Made by a program: the position numbers and the translations under genes
Notes under the pieces: generated by a model
What the model was told of the DNA's origin: nothing
The model's database searches: none
The model's input: the letters and a program-made list of their open reading frames with translations, nothing else
IMG/VR virus record: IMGVR_UViG_3300042288_001626
Reading direction: 5' to 3' (one strand)
Length of the DNA stretch: 64,000 nucleotides
Source of the DNA: a virus
Lineage: Duplodnaviria; Caudoviricetes
Part shown: in pieces, positions 36,148 through 36,320 of the stretch
Numbering within the stretch: position 1 is the first letter of the stretch
Layout: the number at the start of each line of letters is the position of its first letter

Positions 36148-36187
36148 TAGAAAACCCCACACACAATTTTTAGCTGTGTGTGGGGTT
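36148..36187 (-). terminator. Terminator between the sRNA and the tmRNA promoter
   Basis: 13-bp stem AACCCCACACACA/TGTGTGTGGGGTT followed by TTCTATT. Confidence 0.8.
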
Positions 36188-36286
36188 GGGGACGTAATGG
36201 TTAGATTACGTTACCTTTCCACCACTTGCATTTTATTTTACGAGAATGCAAGAACTCGTCGCTGTTTAGGCTAAGTAATCCTAATC
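36148..36286 (-). ncRNA. Candidate ~140-nt structured small RNA with an H-type pseudoknot
   Basis: Bounded by a consensus promoter and a terminator; no ORF longer than 6 codons seen; hairpins TTAGG/CCTAA and ACGTAAT/ATTACGT; pseudoknot at 36225-36259. Confidence 0.65.
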
Positions 36287-36291
36287 AATGT

Positions 36292-36320
36292 ATTATACCA
36301 CAAAAAAGCTAAAAAAGCGA
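36292..36320 (-). promoter_or_regulatory. Extended -10 sigma70-type promoter
   Basis: TCGCTT-N17-TATAAT with TG at -15/-14. Confidence 0.75.

Follow-up and report, generated by a model that had tools for sequence, protein, structure and literature searches.

Small RNAs (sRNAs) can arise from 5' leaders by premature termination, as is the case for SreA and SreB of Listeria and rnTrpL of Sinorhizobium, and in phage T4 the tRNA cluster is co-transcribed with two stable small RNAs, species 1 and 2 (band C/D), whose role is unknown. Phage-encoded transfer-messenger RNAs (tmRNAs, encoded by ssrA) are known as well, and their control by phages has barely been studied; in phage Melnitz, ssrA is associated with a predicted glutamine riboswitch (PMC9004378). 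Here we describe a module of about 135 nucleotides (nt) that separates, on the minus strand, the tmRNA gene of a freshwater phage (uncultured) from a promoter standard for the phage family, in a stretch of 64,000 nt (IMG/VR virus record IMGVR_UViG_3300042288_001626; this whole stretch is called the window, and positions count from its first letter). The module, a structured RNA specific to its lineage, is of a generally known kind and represents no new class. We read it as the 5' leader of the ssrA unit, structured and equipped with a terminator, with a short terminated RNA as a second product; this is a tentative reading with a probability of roughly 45%, because promoters of the same type drive ssrA in related phages and the tmRNA of the window appears to lack an intact promoter of its own.

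Along the minus strand the order is: an extended -10 promoter (P1), about 135 nt of structured RNA, an intrinsic terminator, 40 nt more, and the tmRNA gene. The putative transcript, from its likely start near 36285 to the U-tract, would measure about 135-140 nt. A preliminary description of the locus had listed a promoter, hairpins, a pseudoknot pattern, a mini-open reading frame (mini-ORF) and a terminator, all of which are present on the minus strand, and its view of a discrete, conserved, structured non-coding unit with strong promoter and terminator upstream of ssrA is supported. Like the leader-derived sRNAs, the unit has a promoter, a structured leader and an intrinsic terminator before a gene, so that short and read-through products would be expected; unlike them, it precedes a tmRNA rather than an mRNA and shows no evident sensing element or antiterminator. 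T4 species 1 and 2 are likewise phage small structured RNAs in one unit with a tRNA-like gene, but they are released by processing and have no sequence relation to the module, which is parted from its tRNA-like gene by a terminator. Melnitz (PMC9004378) likewise has a phage tmRNA accompanied by a small regulatory RNA structure adjacent to an early-type promoter; there, however, the element is a member of an established Rfam family and is found within the 3' domain of a tmRNA in two pieces, whereas the module matches no known family and lies 5' of a one-piece tmRNA.

Promoters and relatives of the ssrA unit

Transcription from P1 (Table 1) is predicted to start at about 36286-36284. Its -35 matches TTGACA at just two of six positions, and P1 is therefore classed as an extended -10 promoter; the same poor -35 explains why P1 was missing from a two-hexamer promoter scan. 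The string TGNTATAAT occurs a single time in the 64 kilobases (kb) of the window. The combination of TGGTATAAT and a following AnnTTG is conserved before ssrA or before small cassettes in about 20 related loci, and a 5' hairpin equivalent to hairpin H1 of the module directly follows the P1-type promoter there too; these three elements mark the transcription units at this junction in all relatives. On this comparison of sequences P1 is the family's promoter for ssrA and cassettes and is not peculiar to an sRNA. The preliminary description had assigned it to a small RNA: the elements TCGCTT-17-TGGTATAAT are indeed present, but a promoter of this type drives ssrA in the relatives.

The tmRNA-proximal promoter has decayed. 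In the 40-nt spacer between the module terminator and the tmRNA, a TTGCTT is followed at 18 nt by TAACCT without TG, and UUCUAUAU then reaches G1 of the tmRNA. Relatives with a second promoter have a perfect TGGTATAAT beside the tmRNA at the place where the window has TAACCT. At the same site L019 (L numbers denote related loci), a member of the one other lineage that carries the module, reads TTGCTT-18-TGcTAGTAT; in both the window and L019 the -10 site lies just 7-8 nt before G1, and the -10 region is poorly conserved between them, being the least conserved part of the spacer. Judged by these hexamers, the tmRNA of the window has no promoter of its own that is still intact.

Freshwater viromes and metagenomes contain homologues of both the upstream ORF and the tmRNA, and the junction between them is arranged in several ways. 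In L001, L007, L009, L011, L012 and L068 a single promoter is followed by a leader of 30-65 nt, which ends in a small hairpin and U-run, and by the tmRNA; in L005/L040, L010/L046, L067 and L069 tandem promoters are set apart by a mini-hairpin of 35-60 nt; and in L039, L043, L044, L045, L048, L050 and L052 a terminator parts the small protein genes (one or two) behind the first promoter from a second perfect promoter and the tmRNA. Every such small-gene cassette lies in the junction of tail ORF and tmRNA and has a TGGTATAAT promoter of its own in front of it; the cassettes have no assigned function (e.g., an ORF of 181 amino acids (aa) in L043, 2191-2912, and ORFs of 70 and 94 aa in L048, 2184-2729). 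The tmRNA has been lost in L047/L049. Given these varied arrangements, the junction is a hot spot for variable inserts. The family thus keeps a very strong, invariant promoter before ssrA and repeatedly inserts unrelated structured RNAs, mini-terminators or small genes between this promoter and the tmRNA.

The closest tmRNA tag to that of the window is found in a sister lineage (L004/L037, L014/L051 and L017), which has a single promoter, a different structured leader of 133 nt (L037 2216-2348; L051 561-692; L017 1-129) and the tmRNA. This sister leader is Y-shaped and unrelated to the module, contains two compensatory pairs and runs with its U-rich end directly up to tmRNA G1. It resembles the module in promoter, position, length, 5' hairpin and compensatory changes, and likewise has a long stem that passes into a U-rich run before G1, but a covariance model detected no sequence or structural homology between the two and no decayed promoter copy precedes the sister tmRNA. 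The sister leaders indicate that long structured leaders are compatible with ssrA expression in this group.

Some further observations concern the same elements. In L047 (2755-2900; the same in L049) the promoter, about 125 nt of hairpins, a trailer-like UUUUCUGGUGGUAAC and a strong terminator are retained, and a hairpin loop of L047 has the 11-mer CAGCUAAAAAU in common with the loop of the window's module terminator. Elsewhere in the window, TATAATTACTTGCTTGG (16679-16695, minus strand), in the gap between ORFs at 16270-16713, is similar, but for one mismatch, to the family promoter together with the motif transcribed first from it. A T-rich motif of 20 nt (core GCTTTTTTAsCTnT) occurs three times on the minus strand, before P1 (36323-36304), after the module terminator (36146-36127) and after the tmRNA terminator (35635-35616); the last two copies share an exact 13-mer and form direct repeats on either side of the tmRNA. 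The copy past the tmRNA terminator of L032 is closer to the upstream copy of the window than to that of L032 itself. The recurrence of the motif is consistent with the spacer promoter being a decayed duplicate.

Table 1. Features of the ssrA unit and its neighbours (positions in the window)
Feature	Position	Strand	Details
Upstream ORF, 227 aa	36321-37004	minus	upstream neighbour; TAG stop at 36323-36321
Promoter P1	36320-36292	minus	-35 TCGCTT 36320-36315; 17 nt; perfect extended -10 TGGTATAAT 36300-36292
Hairpin H1	36284-36280 with 36270-36266	minus	UUAGG/CCUAA; 4 base pairs (bp) in the relative
Candidate H-type pseudoknot	36259-36225	minus	stem S1 5 bp, loop L1 2 nt, stem S2 8 bp, loop L3 7 nt
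S1	36259-36255 with 36244-36240	minus	ACGAG with CUCGU
S2	36252-36245 with 36232-36225	minus	CUUGCAUU with AAUGCAAG
Loops L1 and L3	L3 36239-36233	minus	L1 UU; L3 AAAAUAA
Mini-ORF	36231-36211	minus	MQVVER*
Invariant run	36225-36217	minus	GUGGUGGAA; predicted partner is the terminator U-tract 36152-36146, closing a three-way junction
Hairpin H3	36211-36205 with 36198-36192	minus	ACGUAAU/AUUACGU
Intrinsic terminator	36187-36153 (stem), to 36146 with tract	minus	14 pairs, 7 of them G-C; 7-nt loop; then UUUUCUAUU
Spacer with decayed promoter copy	36145-36106	minus	TTGCTT 36143-36138; 18 nt; TAACCT 36119-36114; no TG
tmRNA gene (ssrA)	36105-35686	minus	downstream gene of the unit; complete, one-piece; ARAGORN; Rfam RF00023, 149.9 bits
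Terminator of the tmRNA gene	35666-35632	minus	

Conservation and folding of the module

Homologues of the upstream protein form one cluster at 75% identity (P0002 and two variants), all others being below 60%; the 75% lineage (L019, L020 and L032-L036; the L019 type) carries the module. The L019-type module is about 82-87% identical to that of the window and the tmRNA about 0.92, whereas the nt identity of the flanking genes is about 70% and drops to 0.29-0.50 at their four-fold degenerate sites. This places the module under purifying selection, which is clear enough to conclude that it does something. Nine of ten further metagenome or read-assembly contigs carry an identical copy; the tenth (L027) has CUAGU for CUCGU in S1 and a change in the loop, and is truncated inside the module at the contig end, so that it has little weight. 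A covariance model (R1; 42 sources) recovered the module in the window and the L019 type only, with a weak match (E = 0.12) in L007/L038 that lies downstream of the tmRNA. A scan of IMG/VR with a pattern spanning both arms of S2 gave L031 as its sole match, a chance one inside a coding region, and the S2-arm pattern with GTGG after the 3' arm had no match in a genome collection of 185,579 species.

Substitutions between the two lineages fall in loops or are compensated. One terminator pair changes in compensatory steps, from C-G (window) through A.C (L019) to A-U (L032-L036); the U-tract UUUUCUA is conserved. S1 has one compensatory change in the relative (A-U to G-C) and has lost its outer pair, and H3 keeps seven of seven pairs, with one U-A replaced by U.G and a variable loop. 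In S2 seven pairs are invariant and the junction pair is lost in L035/L036; of the compensatory changes that the preliminary description had named as a check on both stems, one is found in S1, and S2, apart from its junction pair, does not vary. The most variable part is L3, AAAAUAA in the window and AGCAUC, with a 2-nt deletion, in L019, which speaks against a preQ1-like A-minor triplex. For the whole structure the observed covariation count was reached by 36 of 500 shuffles, with two deep lineages only, and the covariation evidence for the helices is suggestive rather than statistical.

The terminator, given as 13 bp in the preliminary description, is present with its U-tract, but we count 14 pairs in its stem; the two hairpins described as flanking the pseudoknot correspond to H1 (5') and H3 (3'). 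A 151-nt stretch folded with z = -6.6 relative to shuffles, i.e., it is far more stable than these. Perfect H-type patterns (S1 of 5 bp, S2 of 8 bp, loose loop ranges) were found twice in the 64-kb window, the two strands taken together, compared with a mean of 0.5 in 40 shuffles, so that such a pattern somewhere in 64 kb is not rare; inside the 180-nt spacer about 7e-4 would be expected by chance, and the pattern persists in the single diverged relative lineage. By rough estimate the knot has an energy of about -13 kcal/mol and the best nested fold one of -6.8. On steric and energetic grounds an H-type pseudoknot could form; it is plausible, although unproven.

The resemblance to pseudoknot 1 (PK1) of tmRNA, which had been pointed out, concerns the topology and, in the window only, the 9-mer CUCGUAAAA at the 3' arm of S1 and the start of L3. 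However, this best local alignment between module and tmRNA reaches a score attained by 74 of 200 shuffles, the 9-mer is missing from the L019-type module (it is absent in L032), and duplex energies over the whole length are no better than those of shuffles; the sequence similarity to the tmRNA is at chance level, and a relationship to PK1 is not supported.

A coding function is not borne out either. The six-codon mini-ORF, whose start codon the preliminary description placed within S2, has no Shine-Dalgarno sequence, and its frame is not conserved, since a 2-nt indel extends it to ten codons (MQVVEDSNVI*) in L019. On the opposite strand, ORFs differ between the lineages in length and in their middle part through indels and do not keep frame either.

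Folding points to two predicted conformers. In the terminated RNA of the window nested folding favours the S2 hairpin (pair probability 0.83-0.88), on which the S1 hairpin could be superimposed to give the pseudoknot. In the read-through leader of both lineages GCAAG (36229-36225, the 3' arm of S2) is instead taken up by an alternative partner, CUUGC at 36144-36140, with a probability of 1.0, while the S1 hairpin has about 0.9 and S2 is absent. The RNA is thus predicted to be compatible with the pseudoknot if terminated, and to adopt a competing long-range helix on read-through. The terminator itself has a pair probability of about 1.0 in every form folded, and no conserved segment paired with either of its arms in the folds examined; without such a competitor there is no expression platform for a riboswitch. 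Two candidate pairings were rejected: GUGGUGG as an antiterminator against the 5' arm of the terminator forms six pairs and a bulge in the window and is impossible in the L019 type, and an outer rod between the 5' end of the leader and the region before the tmRNA, seen in folds of single sequences, takes different registers in the two lineages with several pairs broken.

In the predicted helix between GGUGGAA, within the invariant run GUGGUGGAA, and the U-tract, the strand UUCUAUU of the window is replaced by UUCUACC in the relative, which turns two G.U pairs into G-C. The same run contains UGGUGGA (36224-36218, minus strand), which is exactly reverse-complementary to UCCACCA at the 3' end of the tmRNA, a complementarity that was noticed post hoc and has a chance probability of roughly 0.01. 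The 3' end of tRNA-Ala is also UCCACCA.

Proposed leader role and rival readings of the unit

If the module is the leader of the ssrA unit, the host RNA polymerase would initiate at P1 and the first 135 nt or so would fold into the 5' hairpin, the S1/S2 element, H3 and the strong intrinsic terminator. The majority of transcripts would end at 36150-36146 as a compact RNA of about 135 nt, whose 3' U-tract would fold back onto the invariant GGUGGAA; the S1/S2 pseudoknot could form in this RNA. A fraction would read through and give pre-tmRNA; there AAUGCAAG would leave the S1 loop and pair with CUUGC past the terminator in a long closing helix, and RNase P would release the 5' end of the tmRNA at G1. 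The module would then set the tmRNA yield of a strong promoter, and the released leader RNA, whatever function it might have, would be a by-product. The module offers a compact case, of about 135 nt and two predicted conformers, for how a phage doses its trans-translation RNA, or for the question whether RNAs derived from leaders have trans-acting roles in infected cells. It involves neither a sensor nor a toxin partner nor a known family, and the lack of a cultured host narrows the experiments that could be done at once.

Several points weigh against the leader reading. The terminator looks efficient, with 14 pairs, four U's and no competitor, and may let little transcription through; expression of the tmRNA may then depend on the proximal promoter, a weak one at which L019 keeps TGn and TAGTAT. 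In several relatives the first promoter drives independent cassettes with terminators of their own, which fits an sRNA unit equally well. The predicted single strands CCUAAACAG, GUCCCC and GUGGUGGAA are conserved in sequence, and a simple attenuator needs none of them. Finally, the covariation amounts to two events between the two deep lineages, at the shuffle frequency given above.

These points lead to the main alternative, which we hold possible yet unlikely: the module may be an independent trans-acting sRNA cassette or 'moron', driven by P1 and fully terminated at 36153-36146, with the tmRNA transcribed from the weak proximal promoter. The invariant single-stranded segments of the sRNA would be the means by which it acts on RNAs or proteins of the host or the phage. 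The position at the hot spot, where P1-type promoters drive unrelated terminated cassettes in L043 and L048, is in line with such a cassette, as are the combination of a strong promoter with a strong terminator, the invariant runs of 9-16 nt outside the helices proven by covariation, and the retention in L019 of TGn-TAGTAT with a TTGCTT -35 at 18 nt. It is weakened by the proximal -10 of the window (TAACCT without TG, in the least conserved part of the spacer), by the perfect TGGTATAAT that all other relatives keep for ssrA, and by the leaders of the sister lineage; moreover, no target or partner was identified.

It is improbable that the module is mostly a non-functional by-product, made up of the terminator of the upstream tail-gene operon and remnants of duplicated promoter segments. 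The threefold T-rich motif and the tandem promoter copies in relatives do speak for repeated duplication at this site, and the completely different leaders of the sister lineages would also fit; but the module is far better conserved than neutral four-fold sites, its substitutions avoid helices or are compensated, and identical copies recur in nine of the ten other metagenome contigs.

An attenuator that senses a ligand or a tRNA (preQ1-like, T-box-like or other) and gates read-through into ssrA is very improbable. The preliminary description had proposed a riboswitch-like sensor of this kind, of which we retain the leader or attenuator and not the sensor. Its appeal lies in the position between promoter and terminator upstream of a gene, in the compact pseudoknot-capable element, in the invariant UGGUGGA complementary to a UCCACCA end and in the phage ssrA with a predicted glutamine riboswitch on record (PMC9004378). 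At gathering thresholds, however, Rfam found the tmRNA alone, and at E<=10 the region 36100-36340 matched no preQ1, ToxI, T-box, 6S or glutamine riboswitch model, a cmscan against preQ1 and ToxI thus remaining empty up to E = 10; the spacer matches that did appear at this level (microRNA, HrrF, SAM-II and similar) are far below thresholds and at chance level. In addition, L3 is not conserved, no alternative pairing covers the terminator arms (the terminator forming at about 1.0 in all folds), H3 and a linker lie between the knot and the terminator, and the 7-mer complementarity is post hoc with a chance of about 0.01.

The likeness to class I preQ1 aptamers, on which the preQ1 proposal rested, consists of an H-type knot of about 35 nt, a first stem of 5 bp, a short L1 and an A-rich L3, the last in the window alone. 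The module differs from them in having no covariance-model match, no conserved A-rich tail, an S2 of 8 bp in place of the short P2, and no expression platform, and it carries U at the position of the ligand-pairing C, as the preliminary description itself had stated. The proposal is not upheld, given the absent Rfam match, the unconserved L3 and the missing antiterminator. Highly doubtful, too, is a new phage RNA device tied to trans-translation, a two-state leader with a pseudoknot form on termination and a long-range helix on read-through, in which the invariant UGGUGGA would recognise the UCCACCA end of tmRNA and tRNA-Ala; if real, such a device would couple ssrA output to the state of these RNAs, or sequester the ends of host tmRNA or tRNA-Ala in trans.

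Barely credible, lastly, is a mimic of a ToxI-like type III antitoxin or a small-protein gene, for which nothing speaks beyond the size and topology of the pseudoknot and the presence of short ORFs: ToxI is a small pseudoknot-forming RNA of similar unit size but stands in a tandem array of repeats of about 36 nt, whereas the module is single-copy (Tandem Repeats Finder returned 0 rows for 35500-36600), has no Rfam match and no toxN-like neighbour (ten neighbouring proteins compared with PHROG and Pfam gave no ToxN match and no family except one AAA ATPase), and the reading frames behave as described above.

Host signal and minor observations

A blastn search of 35600-36900 against 50,697 phage records returned 0 matches, and by this measure the window belongs to a novel phage. 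The 21-mer of tmRNA PK1 (36058-36038) exactly matches tmRNA genes of Spartobacteria, Akkermansia and Lentisphaerales metagenome-assembled genomes (L056-L066; phyla Verrucomicrobiota and Lentisphaerota), which suggests a host, or a source of the phage ssrA, in the Verrucomicrobiota or the wider PVC (Planctomycetes-Verrucomicrobia-Chlamydiae) group. A search of RNA data for the leader sequence by itself listed no run. A riverine metatranscriptome (X1) contains two contigs of 151 nt, both inside the tmRNA (35764-35914 and 35947-36096), with a match of at least 99% and a depth of 2; one of them has a 1-nt insertion after 36016. At the other end of the tmRNA gene (35695-35668, minus strand), the 3' CCACCA is followed by UUUUC and UGGGUGG, which is able to pair back onto the CCA in the precursor. 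The UUUUCU found after the tmRNA 3' end recurs after the module terminator.

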